Shown in pieces: positions 9,461 through 45,281 of a DNA stretch of 64,000 nucleotides. Numbering within the stretch: position 1 is the stretch's first letter; every line of letters starts with the position of its first letter. The stretch is taken from NCBI GenBank assembly GCA_965203675.1, contig CBDBDE010000002.1, positions 600,990-664,989 of the forward strand, in the 5' to 3' direction. The notes below the pieces were generated by a model. It did no database searches. It saw only the letters and a program-made list of their open reading frames with translations, and had not been told where the DNA came from. The DNA is from Dehalococcoidia bacterium. Lineage in GTDB: Bacteria > Chloroflexota > Dehalococcoidia > Lucifugimonadales > UBA3495. A program made the position numbers and the translations under genes.

Positions 9461-11755
9461 CTATCCCCGCGCTTCCTCTATCGCCTCCATGATGTTGGTT
9501 GGGGAAAGGGGAAGCTTGGTCATGCGGACGCCGGTGGCGTGGGACACCGCGTTGGCTAGGGCCGCCAGCGGCGGAATGATGGGGCCTTCGCCGACTCCGC
9601 GCAGTCCGAAAGGATGGCGGGGGTTGGGCACCTCGATAATCACCGCTTCGATCATGGGAAGGTCCAACGCTGTGGGCATCCGGTAGTCCAGGAAGCTGGA
9701 GTTGGCCATCGTCCCGTCGGGCTGGTAGAAGTATTCCTCGTTCATAGCCCAGCCGATCCCCTGCACCGTCGCACCCTGGATCTGCCCCTCCACGAAGTCG
9801 GGATGGACCGCCTGCCCGGCGTCCAGAAAGGCGGTGTACCGGAGGATCTGCACCTTTCCGGTGTCCGGGTCAACCTCCACGTCCACGATGTTGCCGCCGA
9901 AAATGGGGCCCACGCCGGTGGACGGGGCCGAGGCGGAACAGGTCACCGGCCCGCCGGTTCGCATCAAGCGGGCGGCCAGCTCCTTGAAGGTAAAGCGGTC
10001 CTCGGAGTTCTTGGTGCAGATGAAGTTCCCCTTCTCGAACTCCACGTCCTCGTCCTGCACCTCCCACAGCAGCGCCGCTCGGCCCTTCATCCGCTCGATG
10101 ACCTCCTCGGCGGCGGCGATGGCGGCCAGTCCGGTGTCGAAGGCGGTGCGGCTTCCGCCGGTGTTGGCGGTGTAGCCAACGGCGTCGGTGTCTCCCACCG
10201 AGGGATTGACGTCCTCGGAGTCGATTCCCAGGATCTCGGCGGCCTGCATCGCTACCGCCGTGCGCGTCCCGCCGATGTCCACTGATCCGGTTATCAGGTT
10301 GATGGTTCCGTTGCTGTTCACGTTGATGGTCGCCGACGACATCTGGCCGCCCTGGGCGCGGAAGGACACCGCGACGCCCCGGCCTTGGTTGGGGCCGGTC
10401 AGCGGGGTGTTGTAGTGGGGATGGTTCTTCATCGCCTCTTCCAGCTCAATGCATCCGAAAACGGCGTGGGGGACGCCGTTGGGCATCCGGTCGCCCACCT
10501 CGACCGCGTTCCTCAGGCGCAGGTCCATGGGGTCTATCCCCAGCTTCCCCGCCAGTTCGTCCATGGCGGACTCGACGGCGAAGGCCGCCTGGGGCTGGCC
10601 CGGGGCCCGGTAGGCTTGGGCCTTCTGCTTGTTGCAGACCACGTCGTAGCCGTTTACCAGCATATTCTCGCACTTGTACGACCCGAAGGTCGTCACCGCT
10701 CCGCCGCCCACCGGCGACCCGGGGAAGGCTCCGGCCTCGTAGACCATGTACGCTTCGGCAGCGGTCATGGTGCCGTCGTTCTTTGCTCCCAGCTTGACCC
10801 GGATGAAGGTGGCCGACGCGGGGCCGCTGCCCTCGAAAACCTCTTTCCGGCTCATGGCTATCTTCACCGGGCGGCCCGCCTTCTGGGCCAGCACCGCCGT
10901 CACCGGGGCCAGGTAGGTCACGCCCTTGGCGCCGAACCCGCCGCCGATCTCCATGGGCACCACCTTGCACATGGACTCGGGGATCTGCAGGATGCCGCAG
11001 GTGGTGGCCCGCACTCCGAAGGCTCCCTGCGTACTGGTCCAGATGGTCACCCGCCCGTCGGTGGACCAGGAAGCGGTGGAAACGTGGGGCTCGATATACC
11101 CCTGGTGGACGGTCTGCGTCTCGTACTCGTTCTCGAAGATGACATCCGCTTCCCGGAACCCCTTTTCCACATCCCCCAGCCGGTGCTGCAGGTGTCCGGC
11201 GATATTGCCCTTCTGCCCCGTGTCCTCGCCGGGGCCGGCCCGGTCCATGCGGAAGCGGGTGGTCATGTCCTCGTGGAGCACCGCGGCGTCGTCCGCCATC
11301 GCCTCACGCCATCCCAGGACGGTGGGCAGGACCTCGTAGTCCACCTCGACAAGCTCCAGGGCCTGCTCGGCGACGTGGGGGTTCACCGCCGCCACGGCCG
11401 CCACCGCGTGTCCCTTGTACAGCACCTTCTGGTTAGCCAGGATGTTCTCGGCAATCAGGCGGGGATTGCCCTGGAAGTTCTCGTAGTCCAGCGGACGCGC
11501 CTTGATAACCGGGAAGTCCGCCGACGTAGCCACCGCCAGCACCCCGGGCATGGCCTCCGCCTTGGATGTGTCAATGGCGCGGATGCGGGCATGGGAGTAG
11601 GGGCTGCGCAGGACCTTCCCGTGGAGCATCCCCGGGAGGTTCAGGTCGGCGCCGAACCTGGCCGCTCCGGTAACCTTGTCGTAGGCGTCGTGACGCATGG
11701 GACGGGTTCCCAGTACCCGGTACTCGCCGCTGCTCGGTTGCGCGGTAGTAGTCAT
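9461..11755 (-). CDS. Xanthine dehydrogenase family protein, molybdopterin-binding (large) subunit
   Basis: 'RHDAYDKVTGAARFGADLNLPGMLHGKVLRSPYSHARIRAID' plus an aldehyde oxidase/XDH-type C-terminal region ('GVGEGPIIPPLAALANAV'). Start set at ATG 11755 with a GAAGGAGG RBS. Confidence 0.85.
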   Translation of the reverse strand: MTTTAQPSSGEYRVLGTRPMRHDAYDKVTGAARFGADLNLPGMLHGKVLRSPYSHARIRAIDTSKAEAMPGVLAVATSADFPVIKARPLDYENFQGNPRLIAENILANQKVLYKGHAVAAVAAVNPHVAEQALELVEVDYEVLPTVLGWREAMADDAAVLHEDMTTRFRMDRAGPGEDTGQKGNIAGHLQHRLGDVEKGFREADVIFENEYETQTVHQGYIEPHVSTASWSTDGRVTIWTSTQGAFGVRATTCGILQIPESMCKVVPMEIGGGFGAKGVTYLAPVTAVLAQKAGRPVKIAMSRKEVFEGSGPASATFIRVKLGAKNDGTMTAAEAYMVYEAGAFPGSPVGGGAVTTFGSYKCENMLVNGYDVVCNKQKAQAYRAPGQPQAAFAVESAMDELAGKLGIDPMDLRLRNAVEVGDRMPNGVPHAVFGCIELEEAMKNHPHYNTPLTGPNQGRGVAVSFRAQGGQMSSATINVNSNGTINLITGSVDIGGTRTAVAMQAAEILGIDSEDVNPSVGDTDAVGYTANTGGSRTAFDTGLAAIAAAEEVIERMKGRAALLWEVQDEDVEFEKGNFICTKNSEDRFTFKELAARLMRTGGPVTCSASAPSTGVGPIFGGNIVDVEVDPDTGKVQILRYTAFLDAGQAVHPDFVEGQIQGATVQGIGWAMNEEYFYQPDGTMANSSFLDYRMPTALDLPMIEAVIIEVPNPRHPFGLRGVGEGPIIPPLAALANAVSHATGVRMTKLPLSPTNIMEAIEEARG

Positions 11756-11800
11756 CGAATGGCCCTCCTTCAATACGCGTAAGGTACGCAAAAATAAGTG

Positions 11801-11826
11801 GGAAAAGGCCGGAACAAGCCCCGGCC
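11801..11826 (-). terminator. Candidate rho-independent terminator after the PIN gene
   Basis: The minus strand reads GGCCGG-GGCTTGTT-CCGGCC-TTTTCC. A second 8-bp hairpin (ggttgccg/cggcaacc) lies at about 11828-11855. Confidence 0.5.
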
Positions 11827-11890
11827 CGGTTGCCGTGTACGCTATACCGGCAACCCGGCGGCGTCAAGTGCGGTATGGCTTTGGCAACCG

Positions 11891-12367
11891 TTACAGCAAC
11901 CCCAACGCCCCTTCCGGTGGGACTACGAAGAGGTTGTATTCCGACCGAATCCCGGAGGACTCCAAATCCTTGCGAAGCGGCGTATCTGTTGTTACAAGGA
12001 TCGCCCCTGTTTCCACCGCTAACCTGACGAGATACGTGTCGTCTTGGCTTCCTGAAGGGATATCCAGTTCTTCGTCAAATGGGGAAGAGGTATGCCCGAG
12101 TCCAACGATCTTTCCGTCGATTTGGAGCGCGTTCAGAAATGCCCTCAAGAGAGAAGGTCCTGGTTGCGGATAATAATGCTCCGGGCGATTTAGTTGGGCA
12201 AACATTTTGTCCCATAGGACATCATCCACCACTATCGTGTGGCAAATCTCGATTATCTGTTGGATTAGGTCAGCGCAAACAGGGCTGGGGTTTCCGTGCT
12301 CATCCAATCCTTGTTGCGCCAGGATGACCACGTTTTCGTCCAGGATGAAGCGGGGAGCGGGAGTCAT
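11891..12367 (-). CDS. PIN-domain-like nuclease (putative effector/toxin)
   Basis: 158 aa. N-terminal 'RFILDENVVILAQ' (first acidic residue), 'IQQIIEICH' (E), 'QDDTYLVRLAVETGAILVTTDTPL' (third and fourth acidic residues in the typical '..A.A...ga.LvT.D' context). Its ATG overlaps the ATPase stop (ATGA). Sampled lines are low GC (about 45-50%). Confidence 0.65.
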   Translation of the reverse strand: MTPAPRFILDENVVILAQQGLDEHGNPSPVCADLIQQIIEICHTIVVDDVLWDKMFAQLNRPEHYYPQPGPSLLRAFLNALQIDGKIVGLGHTSSPFDEELDIPSGSQDDTYLVRLAVETGAILVTTDTPLRKDLESSGIRSEYNLFVVPPEGALGLL

Positions 12368-13605
12368 GCCTTGGCGCGCAGGGCGTCGACATACCTCCGC
12401 ATCTCATCCAGGTCTGTTTCGAAGAAGCTCTTCAACCCTCCGGTAACCTGTCCCCGCTCGTTCACCTCGATCTCGCTGGCCGAGCAAACTCCCTCGTCGT
12501 CTTTCTCGAAGGAGTATATTGCCAGTTCGTCGGAGGACAGCTTCCCCTCCGCCACCGAGGTCAGAAGCCTCCCCACGATGTGTTCGCTATGGGTTGTCAT
12601 GATCAGTTGTTTTTCATCGGCCTTGGCCTGCTCCACCAGCACCGATGCCAGATCCGCCTGTGCTTTCGGATGCAAATGAATCTCCGGTTCCTCAATCAAC
12701 ACCGTCGCCCCCGGCACGGCCCTCACTGCCTCAAACAAAAGGTGAACCAGAGCGTTAGTTCCGAACCCTTCCATTGACAAACTGAAGTCACCCAATTTCG
12801 ATTCGGAGACCGGCTTTGCAGATTGCGGCGGAACTGTATCCGTTCTGAACCCGACTCCGGTCACCCTCTTCATTAAACGAGAAACCTTCTCAACATCGCG
12901 GCGGGAATATGCCAGCGTCGTGGCGGTCTTATCTTCCTGCGATCCTAACCCCTTGGCCCCAGATATATCCGTTGTAGCTTCAATCCCTAATGGGTAGACT
13001 CCACGGGTCAACCCCCTGCCAACTGGAACCGTTTTCATGTTGGACAAAAATCGTGTTGGCGCATTGGAAAGTTGATCCCAAATTGGTTGGTTTGGATTTT
13101 CACCTCCCGATCCATAACTAACCCTGAATCTATTGATTCCTCGCAATACCTCGTATCCAATTGAACCGTTTGGCGTTCTCGCTTCAAGGTTTCTACGATT
13201 CCGGGAGAACCGAATTTGGTGTTGTTGATCAGTGGTTTCCCATGTTGTGGATCCACGATCTTCCAGAAGGTCTGCCTTGCCAGAATACTCCAGGTTCACC
13301 TCAAATTTTATTGGTTTTTCGAGAACTTCCGTATCTGGAGAGAAGTATCCTGCGAACGACAACTTTGATTTGTCTTTGGCAGGGTTAATTGCACGAAAAG
13401 CAAGTGCTTCCGAATCGAAGGTTACCAACTCCCCTTCCAACCGCAACGGGTCAACGTCGTCCCTAGACTGCTTCAGTAACAACAACGCCTGCAAGACGCC
13501 AGACTTCCCGGTGCCGTTCGGGCCGATGAACACCGTAATCAGCTTGGGGTCGATGCTGACATGGCGGAAGCACTTGAAATTTTCCAGGGTGATGTTCGTT
13601 ATCAT
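12364..13605 (-). CDS. ABC/SMC-like AAA ATPase (AAA_15/AAA_21 type; C-terminus possibly DUF3696-like)
   Basis: 'MITNITLENFKCFRHVSIDPKLITVFIGPNGTGKSGVLQALLLLKQS' (Walker A), 'MEGFGTNALVHLL' (signature-like), 'ATVLIEEPEIHLHPKAQ' (Walker B/D-loop), 'IMTTHSEHIV' (H-loop). Start trimmed to ATG 13605 (GGAGAGG RBS). The 513-aa track ORF runs into the upstream gene. Confidence 0.8.
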   Translation of the reverse strand: MITNITLENFKCFRHVSIDPKLITVFIGPNGTGKSGVLQALLLLKQSRDDVDPLRLEGELVTFDSEALAFRAINPAKDKSKLSFAGYFSPDTEVLEKPIKFEVNLEYSGKADLLEDRGSTTWETTDQQHQIRFSRNRRNLEARTPNGSIGYEVLRGINRFRVSYGSGGENPNQPIWDQLSNAPTRFLSNMKTVPVGRGLTRGVYPLGIEATTDISGAKGLGSQEDKTATTLAYSRRDVEKVSRLMKRVTGVGFRTDTVPPQSAKPVSESKLGDFSLSMEGFGTNALVHLLFEAVRAVPGATVLIEEPEIHLHPKAQADLASVLVEQAKADEKQLIMTTHSEHIVGRLLTSVAEGKLSSDELAIYSFEKDDEGVCSASEIEVNERGQVTGGLKSFFETDLDEMRRYVDALRAKA

Positions 13606-13639
13606 GGCGACTGTCCTCTCCGCCAATTGTACACCAGGC

Positions 13640-14704
13640 CTACTCCACCAACTCCACCGCCCTCTGCGTCGCCGACCAGGGCAGCAGCCACGAGGAGTGC
13701 CGTCCGTCGCCGCCGGCCACCACGATGACGAACTTGTCCGGGTCCGTCGCCATGGGGATGAGAAAATCGTCGTCCTGAGTCTCCCACTCTTCTGGCCAGG
13801 CCCGCTCTCCGTAATGGCCCCGCCCCCGCAGTTGGCCCAAAGGCAAGCGGGCGTTTTCAAAGATGTACTGCTTGAGGCTGGAGCGGGTGTAACCCGCGGC
13901 GGCAATTTCGGCGGCGTGTTCCGGTCCGAGGACCAGGATGGGGGATGATCCCCGTCCCTGGTAGTGGTAGGCCGAAATGCCGACCGACCTCACCGAGTTG
14001 ACCAGAGTCTCCAGTACCCCTTGTCCGGTCTCCTGGGTGGCCTCGACAAAGGAGTAGATGCCCCGAACGGCGGACACTGTCACCGTGCTCTGCGAAGGTT
14101 CGTATCCTTGCTCAACGTGGAGCGGCTCCCAGGGATTGGCCTCCTGGTTTTCCGAGAAACAGAGGGTGTACTTGCCCGGCCAGCCCTGGGTGGACTTCTC
14201 CATCGTACGCACCGTTGCCCCGCCCATGTTCCGCATCGTCAGTCTGAGCGCGCGCCCGATGGTGGCGTTGGCTTGGTAGCCGGACCCGAAAACCGCCGTC
14301 CCCCCGTGGATGCCCAGCCGGTCCGCCGCCGGCCCGCTCACGATCACAGCCGGAGCCGCCCCGCCGGTGGTCGTGGTGATCGAGCCCACGTTGAACTGGG
14401 GCTGCATCACCGCGCGCACCGCCGCCAGGACCACCGGCATGTAGTCTGGAATGCAGCCAGCCATTACTGCATTGATGGCAACCTTTTCCGCCGTCACCGT
14501 CCCGTTGGCCGGCGGCATCCGCCCCAAGCTGTGCTCGGCGGACACCGGACAGGCTTCCAGCATGTCCAGCACCAGGTCCTCGGTGGGCGGGATGATGGGC
14601 AACCCATCTGTCCAGCCCTGTTCATAGAAGTGCTGGTTAATGTCGATGATGGAGCCGGAAACTTCCAGCTTGCTGGCCCGCGGGGCTGCGCTCTCCGAAC
14701 TCAA
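13640..14704 (-). CDS. Conserved hypothetical protein co-oriented with the UGSC selenoprotein gene
   Basis: 354-aa ORF with high GC3 and coherent sequence ('GWTDGLPIIPPTEDLVLDML', 'INAVMAGCIPDYMPVVLAAV', 'GSITTTTGGAAPAVIVSGP'). I recognise no family. TTG start at 14704 is uncertain. Confidence 0.6.
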   Translation of the reverse strand: MSSESAAPRASKLEVSGSIIDINQHFYEQGWTDGLPIIPPTEDLVLDMLEACPVSAEHSLGRMPPANGTVTAEKVAINAVMAGCIPDYMPVVLAAVRAVMQPQFNVGSITTTTGGAAPAVIVSGPAADRLGIHGGTAVFGSGYQANATIGRALRLTMRNMGGATVRTMEKSTQGWPGKYTLCFSENQEANPWEPLHVEQGYEPSQSTVTVSAVRGIYSFVEATQETGQGVLETLVNSVRSVGISAYHYQGRGSSPILVLGPEHAAEIAAAGYTRSSLKQYIFENARLPLGQLRGRGHYGERAWPEEWETQDDDFLIPMATDPDKFVIVVAGGDGRHSSWLLPWSATQRAVELVE

Positions 14705-14814: not shown

Positions 14815-15354
14815 TCAGCGGATCAGCCCCTCGGCTATCTCCCCCGCCCGGTCCCGCGCCGTGGCCTGTATCTGGCCCCGGGTCTTGCTGGCGATGGGAT
14901 GCTCAATTACCACCACCGGATGGTCCGTCATCCCCAGCGTCCGCGCGCGGATTTCCGCCGAGCGGACAAACGCCTGGGTGATTACCGTCACCGCCGGGCG
15001 GCCCCGCTTTTCCGACTCTACCCCGTCGTGGAGACCCCACGTCGTGCAGGACCCTCAATCCGCAACGGCATGGATGATTGCGTCGCACTTGGCGGCCATT
15101 TCATCCAGCACCGAGGGTGGAGTGGGCATGCTCTGGCTGATCTTGCGGTAGGCCATGACCTCGGCCACGCCGTACTGCTCTTGCAGCACCCGGCCCAACT
15201 CTTCAAGGAACACGTCGGAGTTCTTCTTCCGGTTGTCGATCAACCCTATCTTCATCCCCTCCAGCCCGGACAGGCGGCTGGCGACGCCGTGGGTTTCGGC
15301 AACGTCCTCCGCCGCCGGATGCAGCAGCGCGTTCATCTGGGCAGCAGCCATCAT
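14815..15354 (-). CDS. UGSC-family selenoprotein (in-frame UGA read as selenocysteine at codon 100)
   Basis: The track ORF 15055-15354 stops at TGA (15055-15057). The same frame stays open for 79 more codons to TGA 14815-14817. I checked this codon by codon. The junction reads '...IIHAVAD-U-GSCTTWGLHDG...RPAVTVITQAFVRSAEIRARTLGMTDHPVVVIEHPIAS...'. AGGAGG RBS before ATG 15354. Confidence 0.75.
15022..15046 (-). promoter_or_regulatory. Candidate bacterial SECIS hairpin
   Basis: The mRNA after UGA is GGGUCCUG-CACGACGUGG-GGUCU-CCACGACGGG. The apical stem CGUGG/CCACG carries a GGUCU loop (compare the GGUC-containing loop of E. coli fdhF SECIS). It starts about 13 nt after UGA and the lower stem is imperfect. 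Confidence 0.45.
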
Positions 15355-43049: not shown

Positions 43050-45281
43050 ATGGTTGTCACCAAGAACATCGGCCTGGCGACGCCCCGGCAGGACGGTGAG
43101 GCCAAGGTGACCGGGGCCACGCGGTACACCCAGGACCTGTCCCTCCCCGGGACGCTGTGGGGACGGTGCCTGCGCAGCCCGTTACCCCACGCGCGCATTA
43201 CCAGTATCGATACCTCGGCGGCGGAAGGACTGCCCGGCGTCCACGCCGTAATCACCGGGGCCGACGTGCGGGGACTGCGCTACGGCCGGCGCCTGCACGA
43301 CGTTCCGGTGCTGGCGGATGACCGGGTCCGGTTTGTGGGGGAGCGCGTGGTGGCGGTCGCGGCTGAGGACCGGGAAACGGCGGAGGCGGCGCTGCTGCTC
43401 ATCGACGTGACCTACGAGGAGCTTCCTGCCGTCTTCGACCCGAAGGAAGCCCTGGCCGGCGGAGCACCGGTCCTGCATCCCGACTATAACTCCTACGCGG
43501 GTATTCCCCGTCCTCTGGAGACGCTGTCCAACGCCTTTGTCACGGATACCTGGGGCAAGGGCAACGTGGAGGTCGGTTTCCTGGAAGCGGACCTGATCTT
43601 GGAGGGGACCTACTCGGTGCCCAGGCAGCACCAGGCCTACCTGGAAGGACACTCCTGCCTGGTGTGGGTCGACGAAGACGACCGGATCCAGGTGTGGGCC
43701 TCCAACAAGGTCCCATTCCAGGTGAAGGAACAGTTGACCATCGGGCTGGGCTTGCCGGAGGGCCGTATCCGGCTGAACCCGGTGGACATCGGCGGCGACT
43801 ATGGGGGGAAGGGCTCGCCGATGGACATTCCCGTGGCCTACTACCTGGCGGCGAAGACGGCGCGTCCGGTGCGGATGGCTATGGACTCGCTGGAGGAGTT
43901 CACCGCGGGCAATCCCCGTCACGCTGCGACCATCCACCTGAAAACAGGAGTCAAGCGGGACGGAACGCTGACCGCCCAGGAATCCCAGGTTTGGTTCAAC
44001 AGCGGCGCCTACGGGGGGTTCAAGCCGGCCCCCGGCTGCAACCTGGGCGGAGCGGCCAAGGCCGGCGGCCCTTACCGGATTCCCCACGTCCGGCTAACCG
44101 GCACCCAGGTCTACACCAACACCGTACCGGGCGGGTTCATGCGGGCGCCGGGGGAGCCCCAGGTAGTTTTCGCCGCCGAGTCGCACATGGACGAGATTGC
44201 CGCTCAACTGGGGTTGGATCCGGTGGAGTTCCGGCTCAAGAACCTGCTGCGTGAGGGGGACGTTGATCCGGTGGGGATGAGGTACCAGAACATACGGGCG
44301 CGCCAGACGGTGGAATCGGCGGTGGGGGCGTCCGGCTACCGGTCGCCCAAGCCTGACAACGTGGGCCGGGGGATAGCGGTGGGCGAGCGCACGACGGCCG
44401 GGGGCGAGTCCCACACGGCAGTAACCCTCCACCTCGACGGGTCGGTGGTGGTCAACTCATCCATCTTCGAGCCGGGCACCGGGACCTACACGGTCCTGAG
44501 CAAGATCGTGGCGGAGGAACTGGGCCTTCCGGTGGACCGGGTCTCGGTGGAGGTCTGGGACACCGACGCCGTTCCCTTCGACACGGGAGTGGGCGGCAGC
44601 CGGTCAACGCGCATGGCGGGAATGGCGGCCCTGGAGGCGTCGGCGGATGTGTCCCAGCAGTTGTACCGGGTGACCGGCGACCTGTTGGGGTGGCCGGAAG
44701 GCGAACTGTCCATCGAGGGGGACGACATCGTCCGGCGGGATACGGGAGAACGCTCACCGTGGGTAGACATCCTGGCTCGGATCGGCGGTCCGGTTTCCGG
44801 GCGGGGGACGGCGATGGATCCGGACCGGTCGCCGATAACGTCGTTTACGGCCCAGGTGGCGGAGGTGTCGGTGGACCCGGAGACGGGAGCGGTGCGTCTG
44901 GAGCGGCTGACCACCGCGCACGACGTGGGAACGGTGCTCAACCCGCTAGACCACCAGGGCCAGATAGAAGGCGCCGTGATCCAGGGAGTCGGGTTTGCGC
45001 TGACGGAAGAGCTGGGCGTTGAAGAGGGAAGGGTCTCCACTGTCAGCTTCGGGGACTACAAGATTCCGAATGTAGCGGATGTTCCTGTGCTGGATACGGT
45101 GGTGCTGGAGTCGGGTATGGGTTCGGGTCCGTACAACGCGAGGGGGATCGGGGAGAACCCCAGCGGGTGCGTCGCTCCCGCCATCGCCAACGCCGTAGCC
45201 GACGCGGTGGGGGCGCGGGTCAAGGAGCTGCCGGTGACGGCGGAGAGGGTGTACCGGGCCTTAAATGGTGAGGGCAGCTAG
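43050..45281 (+). CDS. Xanthine dehydrogenase family protein, molybdopterin-binding (large) subunit
   Basis: 'RQDGEAKVTGATRYTQDLSLPGTLWGRCLRSPLPHARITSID' and the XDH/aldehyde oxidase C-terminal region ('RGIGENPSGCVAPAIANAV'). Confidence 0.85.
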   Translation: MVVTKNIGLATPRQDGEAKVTGATRYTQDLSLPGTLWGRCLRSPLPHARITSIDTSAAEGLPGVHAVITGADVRGLRYGRRLHDVPVLADDRVRFVGERVVAVAAEDRETAEAALLLIDVTYEELPAVFDPKEALAGGAPVLHPDYNSYAGIPRPLETLSNAFVTDTWGKGNVEVGFLEADLILEGTYSVPRQHQAYLEGHSCLVWVDEDDRIQVWASNKVPFQVKEQLTIGLGLPEGRIRLNPVDIGGDYGGKGSPMDIPVAYYLAAKTARPVRMAMDSLEEFTAGNPRHAATIHLKTGVKRDGTLTAQESQVWFNSGAYGGFKPAPGCNLGGAAKAGGPYRIPHVRLTGTQVYTNTVPGGFMRAPGEPQVVFAAESHMDEIAAQLGLDPVEFRLKNLLREGDVDPVGMRYQNIRARQTVESAVGASGYRSPKPDNVGRGIAVGERTTAGGESHTAVTLHLDGSVVVNSSIFEPGTGTYTVLSKIVAEELGLPVDRVSVEVWDTDAVPFDTGVGGSRSTRMAGMAALEASADVSQQLYRVTGDLLGWPEGELSIEGDDIVRRDTGERSPWVDILARIGGPVSGRGTAMDPDRSPITSFTAQVAEVSVDPETGAVRLERLTTAHDVGTVLNPLDHQGQIEGAVIQGVGFALTEELGVEEGRVSTVSFGDYKIPNVADVPVLDTVVLESGMGSGPYNARGIGENPSGCVAPAIANAVADAVGARVKELPVTAERVYRALNGEGS

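Follow-up and report, generated by a model that had tools for sequence, protein, structure and literature searches.

Two overlapping genes on the minus strand of a 64,000-nucleotide (nt) stretch from a Dehalococcoidia bacterium (contig CBDBDE010000002.1) are the subject of this analysis. We call this whole stretch, not the gene pair alone, the window; all coordinates refer to it unless a locus is named, and (-) denotes the minus strand. The first gene encodes an ABC ATPase of 413 amino acids (aa) (12364-13605 (-)), and the second encodes a 158-aa PIN-domain protein (11891-12367 (-)), assigned by its predicted fold and by profile searches, which is the proposed RNase effector. The N-terminus of the ATPase is MITNITLENFKCF, and its start codon, an ATG at 13605, has a GGAGAGG sequence before it. 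As read from the sequence, the TGA of the ATPase gene lies over the ATG of the PIN gene in an ATGA stop/start overlap (12364-12367 (-)), the arrangement of translational coupling. A 4-bp overlap or a direct abutment of the two genes is also seen in related loci. An earlier reading of the letters alone (the sequence-only reading) had listed this overlap and several motifs, and all of them are present on the minus strand: the Walker A motif GPNGTGKS, VLIEEPEIHLHP and TTHSEH in the ATPase, and FILDENVV, IIEICH and DDTYLVRLAVETGAILVTTD in the 158-aa open reading frame (ORF). At E<=1e-3, the small protein has 395 homologs and the ATPase has 995. With hundreds of homologs each, both ORFs are real genes.

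The pair differs in composition from the genes around it. Its GC content is 52.1%, compared to 64.9% in the upstream 354-aa gene and 66.1% in the downstream gene for a molybdenum (Mo) subunit, and its GC content at third codon positions (GC3) is 59%, compared to 83-87% in the flanking operon genes. The compositional contrast described in the sequence-only reading is thus real, although its size was overstated. The upstream gene ends 34 nt before the ATPase start, and 100 bp separate the PIN stop codon from the next ORF in the window. RNA folding places a GC-rich hairpin with a 7-bp stem, followed by UUUU, after the pair (11807-11826 (-)), and the 103-nt region containing it has a folding z of -2.1. 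This is a weak terminator-like element: a consensus terminator scan did not report it, its T-tract being too weak to pass. Of the hairpin and T-tract once assigned to the pair, the hairpin is therefore found and the T-tract falls short.

The ATPase

Pfam AAA_15 (3.2e-31) and AAA_21 (2e-23) both match the ATPase, and its best PDB sequence match is the Thermus OLD protein 6p74 (3.3e-13). Among the PADLOC models, the best is NsnB (1.3e-46), which aligns aa 1-400 with model positions 1-340 of 345 and belongs to the Menshen system, NsnA-NsnB-NsnC (Millman et al. 2022; Li et al. 2025, PMC12065111). The next models are AriA (1.2e-33), HEC-03B (8.8e-32) from the Hma-embedded candidate 03 (HEC-03) system and PDC-M55A (1.8e-29), and the GajA, PtuA and Old models follow at 1e-15 to 1e-17. 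The HEC-03B match (PDLC04148) comes in two stretches, the best of which covers aa 279-403 and, of the 458 positions in the model, 319-442. A Foldseek search with the AlphaFold2 (AF2) model returned OLD, retron Eco8, PtuA, GajA and SMC heads at template modelling (TM) scores of about 0.27, and these matches were used only to confirm the superfamily. No Toprim or HNH domain was matched in the ATPase by Pfam or PADLOC models. These searches make the protein an ABC ATPase of the AAA_15/AAA_21 type within the OLD/AriA/PtuA/GajA superfamily, in line with the sequence-only reading, and its best PADLOC models point to the NsnB/HEC-03 (DUF3696-type) clade.

The nucleotide-binding motifs are strongly conserved among 38 homologs. 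In the Walker A motif (aa 28-35; 13501-13524 (-)), G28, N30, G31, G33 and K34 are invariant. The position of the signature motif is occupied by EGFGTN (aa 279-284; 12754-12771 (-)), a GxG variant that is invariant as well. The Walker B motif and D-loop, VLIEEPEIHLHP (aa 302-313; 12667-12702 (-)), contain the invariant residues E305, E306, P307, E308, H310, L311, H312 and P313; the invariant stretch across the homologs reads IEEPEIHLHP, and this region aligns with VIIEEPEMYLHP of OLD 6p74. In the H-loop TTHSEH (aa 337-342; 12580-12597 (-)), T338, H339, S340, E341 and H342 do not vary. R197 is also invariant and, judging from the sequence, probably stands at the Q-loop position. Both catalytic motifs keep their key residue, Lys in Walker A and Glu in Walker B.

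Two further regions have proposed roles. The first is a beta-rich variable insert (aa 41-272; 12790-13485 (-)), delimited by its low conservation and mosaic divergence and proposed as the sensor surface. Family conservation is lowest at aa 61-180, none of the PADLOC models matches aa 45-275, and a low-confidence AF2 model predicts seven strands at aa 79-166. The second is the DUF3696-like C-terminal tail (aa 342-413; 12367-12582 (-)), proposed as the docking platform for the PIN protein. A PADLOC search with the final 72 aa on their own found nothing but C-terminal parts of models, those of PDC-M55A (2.1e-7), NsnB (5e-5) and HEC-03B (7.2e-5). All 17 plasmid-borne relatives found by tblastn, which match the ATPase through its C-terminal region, are annotated as DUF3696 domain-containing proteins.

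The PIN protein

At threshold, the small protein is recognised by no Pfam, NCBIfam or PADLOC model, and Pfam PIN (PF01850) and TIGR00028 lie far below. Its AF2 model has a pLDDT score (predicted local distance difference test) of 78 and a predicted TM (pTM) score of 0.78. The 29 best Foldseek matches of this model in the PDB are all PIN proteins, including VapC, PAE2754 and HARP RNase P (probability 1.0, TM 0.45-0.66), and the family profile matches the PIN protein 1o4w at 1.4e-4. An exhaustive profile search collected 299 clusters at E<=1e-3. Among the 150 representatives listed of these 299, the full-length proteins are stand-alone proteins of about 145-185 aa with no added effector domain.

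PIN nucleases carry their acidic residues in the motifs hhhD, D..hh..A and T.D, and the motifs around D10, D110 and D128 of the small protein correspond to these positions. We examined their conservation in 40 relatives with 25-59% identity. D10, the first PIN acidic residue, and E11 in FILDEN (aa 7-12; 12332-12349 (-)) are at least 90% conserved, as are D110 and A117 in QDDTYLVRLA (aa 108-117; 12017-12046 (-)). In VTTD (aa 125-128; 11984-11995 (-)), D128 is invariant and T126 is at least 90% conserved. FILDEN aligns with VIDTNV of the HEC-03 PIN family, and QDDTYLVRLA aligns with D(R)KF.AVA of the HEC-03 PINs and with GDpsLIEAA of 1o4w. The predicted structure, the profile match and the conserved residues thus bear out the PIN identity first suggested by the sequence-only reading, and the acidic residues of this PIN domain are conserved. 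One residue of that reading has to be given up, since E40, the Glu of IIEICH that had been counted among the classic acidic positions, is not conserved in distant relatives and is probably not the catalytic Glu.

A Cys-His pair, C42-H43 (within ICHT; 12239-12244 (-)), never varies within the Dehalococcoidia clade, and most of the distant relatives have it too. To our knowledge, such a pair is unusual for a PIN domain. In the alignment, the HEC-03 PIN family has a conserved Cys some 15 residues ahead of C42. A weak PDC-M11A signal from PADLOC in 10 of the 40 relatives (best 6e-4) is not interpretable, the supplement giving family numbers only.

Relation to HEC-03 and other ATPase-nuclease systems

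HEC-03 consists of an ABC ATPase and a VapC-like PIN protein; it cut phage plaquing in E. coli, and both genes were needed (Payne et al. 2024, bioRxiv 10.1101/2024.01.29.577857). The tested pair came from Pseudomonas cichorii and comprises WP_025259138, a DUF3696 domain-containing protein of 461 aa, followed by WP_025259137 of 157 aa (Table S2 of the same preprint). The window pair has the same architecture. In both, the ATPase gene is followed by an overlapping PIN gene (an overlap of 14 bp in HEC-03 and ATGA here), and the PIN protein stands alone, with about 157 aa in HEC-03 and 158 aa here. Common to the two ATPases are a GFG signature and two further motifs, E-x-PEIHLHP and SHSEH. They are 39% identical over 74 aa (3e-15), from the signature through Walker B to the H-loop, and 35% identical over the N-terminal 52 aa. 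As controls, the true HEC-03 ATPase matched HEC-03B at 5.4e-231 and the true HEC-03 PIN matched HEC-03A at 9.4e-86. The next-best PADLOC models of the true HEC-03 ATPase are NsnB (2.3e-52), PDC-M55A and AriA, the same set as for the window ATPase.

The PIN proteins can be connected at the level of profiles. In hhalign, our family alignment (A2) matched the HEC-03 PIN family (A5), a profile of seven HEC-03-type PINs, at 95% probability (E 3.7e-8) over 146 collinear columns, and D-x-N, the Cys, hhDD, D..F..A and the final Asp fell in register between the two profiles. There are also differences: the ATPase described here is about 50 aa shorter, its insert (aa 45-275) is lineage-specific, and defence has been shown only for the Pseudomonas system. 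The pair is a divergent member of the known HEC-03/NsnB-type kind of ABC ATPase plus PIN effector, distantly related both to HEC-03 and to Menshen's core of ATPase and effector, and it is not a new principle. The sequence-only reading had recognised no named system in the combination of ATPase and PIN protein; because the pair matches a named one of the same architecture, for which phage defence has been shown, the claim of novelty fails.

PARIS (AriA-AriB), Septu (PtuA-PtuB), Gabija (GajA) and OLD have an ATPase of the same OLD-type superfamily, and in them, as proposed here, an ATPase sensor controls a nuclease. However, the effector here is a PIN protein instead of a Toprim (AriB, GajA, OLD) or HNH (PtuB) nuclease, the matches to these systems cover the conserved head motifs only, and the tail here is DUF3696-like.

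The HEC-03-like branch extends to plasmids. Relatives of the ATPase immediately precede HEC-03-type PIN genes on Azotobacter, Aeromonas and Rhodococcus plasmids. A gene of the RNA ligase family (PF09414, 9.1e-31) directly follows the HEC-03-like pair on plasmids of Azotobacter, Rhodococcus, Aeromonas and Tistrella (L066 3528-4220, L067 3576-4175, L069 and L070 3026-3727, and L071 2998-3690), and an HNH gene takes the RNA ligase position on the Acinetobacter plasmid L068. The RNA ligase genes hint that RNA may be damaged and repaired in this plasmid branch. No RNA ligase gene is present in the window or in any of the Dehalococcoidia loci, and HEC-03 was tested in the published work with its two genes alone (bioRxiv 10.1101/2024.01.29.577857). 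A Bacillus pacificus plasmid (L065, 2993-5454) carries a DUF3696 ATPase gene that overlaps a gene for a 352-aa hypothetical protein without a Pfam match, beside AbiGi/AbiGii. No DUF262 gene is listed at this locus, which may hold another ATPase-effector pair lacking NsnA.

A conserved pair at variable sites

At each of the 22 informative loci from species-representative genomes, all of them Dehalococcoidia metagenome-assembled genomes, the gene immediately before the PIN homolog is an ATPase homolog. The pairing is kept where the PIN protein is 51% (L036), 38% (L064) or 31% (L063) identical to the window protein, and also at L037/L038, where the identities are 27% for the PIN protein and 34% for the ATPase. 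Strict synteny of the two genes thus holds at all informative related loci, even where the PIN identity falls to 27%. No conserved third gene was found when the 123 ORFs neighbouring the pair at 21 loci were compared. In a single related lineage, at L002 (6414-6770 (-)) and also at L003-L005, the 3' end of the PIN gene is overlapped in antisense by a 118-aa HTH_3/HTH_26 gene, which is absent from the window.

The surroundings of the pair vary. Across the related loci, it occurs in at least eight different genomic contexts: the UGSC operon, a region from DnaA/Obg to Mrp/UvrB, a hypothetical gene with VapBC, an ABC transporter, a DDE transposase with SocA, HicB, and seryl-tRNA synthetase with an N6/N4 methyltransferase are among them. 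In the window, the pair sits in a UGSC operon between the 354-aa gene, which has no Pfam match, and the gene for the Mo subunit, which is of the xanthine dehydrogenase type. A metagenome scan with the 354-aa flank gene found empty sites: four contigs (L039, L041, L042 and L045) have the same UGSC/354-aa/Mo-subunit operon without the pair, and in these contigs the flank genes are 70-120 bp apart. Since the flank genes are adjacent where the pair is absent, the pair was inserted inside the operon and not appended downstream of it, as the sequence-only reading had supposed. The varying contexts and the empty sites together make the pair an inserted, mobile cassette. The GC content of the pair is below that of its flanks in 24 of 24 loci. 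Its horizontal acquisition, which had been proposed along with a sensor-effector role, is supported by low GC, variable contexts and empty sites, and the pair is foreign to its surroundings. The sensor-effector reading is supported as well. Several copies are disrupted: the ATPase gene is split in L004, L032 and L033, the PIN gene is frameshifted in L028, and the PIN match in L022 is truncated.

We found no direct or inverted repeats flanking the insertion and no tRNA gene or integrase that would explain it, and the window contains no tRNA gene or Rfam family. With flanking repeats missing, nothing points to insertion by a transposon or an integrase. Two insertion sequence (IS) elements had been placed near the pair. 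One is confirmed, a DDE_3 (IS630-like) transposase fragment (6910-7533 (+); Pfam 4.4e-22), and is the only confirmed IS-like gene; the second IS-like ORF (8426-9379 (-)) has no Pfam match. The Mo-subunit gene separates both from the pair, to which they are not adjacent but at a distance of 2.5-5 kb.

The UGSC-family selenoprotein gene itself (14815-15354 (-)) contains an in-frame TGA (15055-15057) followed by GSC ('...HAVAD*GSCTTWG'), and because of this TGA it appears as two ORFs in the ORF list. No selenocysteine insertion sequence (SECIS) element was found in the Rfam gathering scan. The window also has a second paralog of the xanthine-dehydrogenase-type Mo subunit (43086-45263 (+)), which is 36% identical.

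Mosaic alleles at the window site

We then compared the alleles of the window with those of its closest genome (L027). The flanks are 93-98% identical at the nucleotide level. Within the pair, the identity and the synonymous divergence (dS) change abruptly from segment to segment. The beginning of the ATPase gene (aa 1-40) is 90-96% identical (dS 0.25), aa 41-272 are only 57-71% identical (dS 3.5), and aa 273-413 return to 79-97% (dS 0.75), in a block that runs into the first PIN codons. The start of the PIN gene (aa 1-25), which lies within this block, is 97% identical (dS 0.12); aa 26-125 fall to 53-79% (dS 1.6), and aa 126-158 are again about 90% identical (dS 0.22). The dS values are saturated in the ATPase insert and in the PIN core. 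For the PIN core, as for the segments of the ATPase, the ratio of nonsynonymous to synonymous divergence (dN/dS) is about 0.1-0.15. This pattern across the segments indicates that two internal segments have been replaced by divergent alleles through recombination, and it does not point to relaxed or purely positive selection. Among the catalogued alleles, the best ATPase allele (91%) and a 76% PIN allele list the same longest contig (20,437 bp), and a 97% PIN allele lists another (5,291 bp) (P0345, P0003 and P0001). This sharing of contigs fits alleles of the two genes re-assorting.

Discussion

We consider it likely that the pair is a self-contained, two-gene anti-phage (abortive-infection) cassette of an ABC ATPase and a nuclease, and a divergent relative of HEC-03 borne by Dehalococcoidia. 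From the precedents of HEC-03, Menshen, PARIS and Septu and from the anatomy of the window pair, we infer a physical complex, a trigger, an RNA target and an anti-phage role. Both proteins would be made in a fixed ratio through the ATGA overlap. The ATPase would oligomerise via its ABC heads, and its DUF3696-like tail would hold the PIN nuclease inactive or sequestered. The fast-evolving, beta-rich insert (aa ~41-272) may sense a phage-derived trigger, upon which ATP binding or hydrolysis would release or activate the PIN protein. The PIN protein could then cleave RNA via a Mg-binding acidic site formed by D10, D110, D128 and a Glu, so that translation and phage growth would stop and the infected cell would be arrested.

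Several observations weigh against this interpretation. The PADLOC v2 model for the HEC-03 PIN, HEC-03A (PDLC04147), gave no match to the window protein at E<=1 and none to any of the 40 PIN family members at E<=0.1. Pfam DUF3696 gave no match to the ATPase at E<=1. The predicted structure of the ATPase is of poor quality (pLDDT 58, pTM 0.45), and for this reason the layout of insert and tail was drawn from comparing sequences. Which residue is the fourth acidic one in the PIN site is ambiguous, with E11, D48 and E100 as the candidates once E40 is set aside. Searches of the phage and plasmid collections gave no homolog of the PIN protein. Most of the 123 neighbouring ORFs at the 21 loci are housekeeping genes; defence and toxin-antitoxin genes form only a minority, and with so few defence neighbours the pair does not typically reside inside a defence island. 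Of the adjacent pairs in defence islands that the sequence-only reading had proposed to look for, adjacency is found at every informative locus, but a defence-island setting is not typical. Finally, no sigma-70-like promoter was found in 11600-13900, and for lack of one the expression of the pair may depend on read-through from the upstream operon.

The main rival is a plain toxin-antitoxin or addiction module, in which a VapC-like toxin is neutralised by the ATPase and the pair is selfish, with no role in phage defence. Its closest known counterpart would be VapBC, as the effector fold and acidic site resemble those of the VapC PIN RNases, and VapC toxins are the closest relatives of the predicted PIN fold in Foldseek. 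An addiction module would also agree with a cassette that is mobile, patchy and often pseudogenised, that has mostly housekeeping surroundings, and that is sometimes found beside VapBC or HicB modules; moreover, AriA of PARIS has been deposited as an 'antitoxin'. However, the partner here is not a small DNA-binding antitoxin like VapB. The upstream gene encodes instead a 413-aa ABC ATPase with intact Walker A and Walker B motifs, an H-loop and a fast-evolving insert, which is excess machinery for an antitoxin, and the homologous HEC-03 architecture gave phage defence that required both genes. The two interpretations overlap in mechanism, since the nuclease is sequestered in both. We regard a purely selfish module as unlikely.

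The resemblance to Menshen raises a second alternative, that the pair is a degraded remnant of NsnB-NsnC that has lost NsnA and the C-terminal nuclease domain of NsnC. In Menshen, NsnB4-NsnC2 complexes are predicted to form via the DUF3696 tail and the PIN-like domain of NsnC, NsnC combines an inactive PIN-like N-terminal domain with a C-terminal nuclease or toxin domain, and all 35 inPIN families lack the catalytic acidic residues (PMC12065111). In NsnB, GxG replaces SGG at the signature, and an Arg occupies the Q-loop position (PMC12065111). The window ATPase is NsnB-type over its full length, has the GxG signature and, with R197, probably the Q-loop Arg, and its partner has a PIN fold like the N-terminal domain of NsnC, the part predicted to bind the NsnB tail. 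Nevertheless, its Walker B motif has EE where NsnB has EN. No NsnA (ParB-DUF262) gene lies upstream of the ATPase, and no DUF262 or ParB gene occurs in the annotated contexts, nor DUF262 among the frequent neighbour families; without NsnA, the pair is not Menshen. The partner is a single domain without a C-terminal nuclease, as are the stand-alone PINs among the representatives listed, and it keeps D10, D110 and D128, the kind of acidic residues missing from every inPIN family. Purifying selection (dN/dS about 0.1) and a pairing that is conserved down to 27% identity argue for a stable lineage and not a remnant. Degradation from Menshen is thus largely refuted and, in our estimation, very improbable.

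The least credible proposal is a housekeeping or operon-specific role, such as RNA processing by the PIN protein with the ATPase as its chaperone, or that of an auxiliary factor for the UGSC/Mo-hydroxylase operon: although the pair holds the same position between the 354-aa and Mo-subunit genes in three related backgrounds (the window, L001/L027 and L002/L007), is likely co-transcribed across the 34 nt to the upstream gene given that no promoter was found, and has a homolog annotated by one source as an FCF1-like rRNA-processing protein, this idea is largely refuted by the empty sites, at which the same operon lacks the pair, and most homologous pairs lie in unrelated contexts, the GC3 is not that of the operon genes, and pseudogenised copies and mosaic allele replacement would be unexpected for an essential function, so that we give it almost no credence.

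The interpretation as an HEC-03-like defence cassette thus remains the best explanation, and it leaves room for a more tentative idea about the clade. It is possible, although rather doubtful at present, that these pairs form an evolutionary bridge between HEC-03 and Menshen, in which an NsnB-like ATPase independent of NsnA carries a docked PIN protein that is still an active nuclease. If this were true, the inactive PIN adaptor of Menshen would descend from a former effector. Equally tentative is the idea that specificity may be re-assorted in nature, with two discrete cassettes, the insert of the ATPase and the core of the PIN protein, swapped through recombination among alleles that occupy one fixed chromosomal site.

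As a probable defence cassette of the HEC-03 kind, the pair extends the HEC-03/NsnB-type ATPase-PIN architecture to uncultured Dehalococcoidia (Chloroflexota). The PIN family contains about 300 clusters of small proteins that no Pfam or PADLOC model recognises, and as a consequence defence annotation pipelines either miss the system or flag an orphan 'NsnB'. The most interesting aspects are this annotation gap, the active-looking PIN protein on a Menshen-like ATPase and the cassette-like exchange of alleles. The PIN protein, with its proposed docking on a DUF3696-like tail, offers a simple two-component model for studying the control of a nuclease by this class of ATPase, and the mosaic allele exchange at a fixed site provides a clean natural example of how such a system diversifies.

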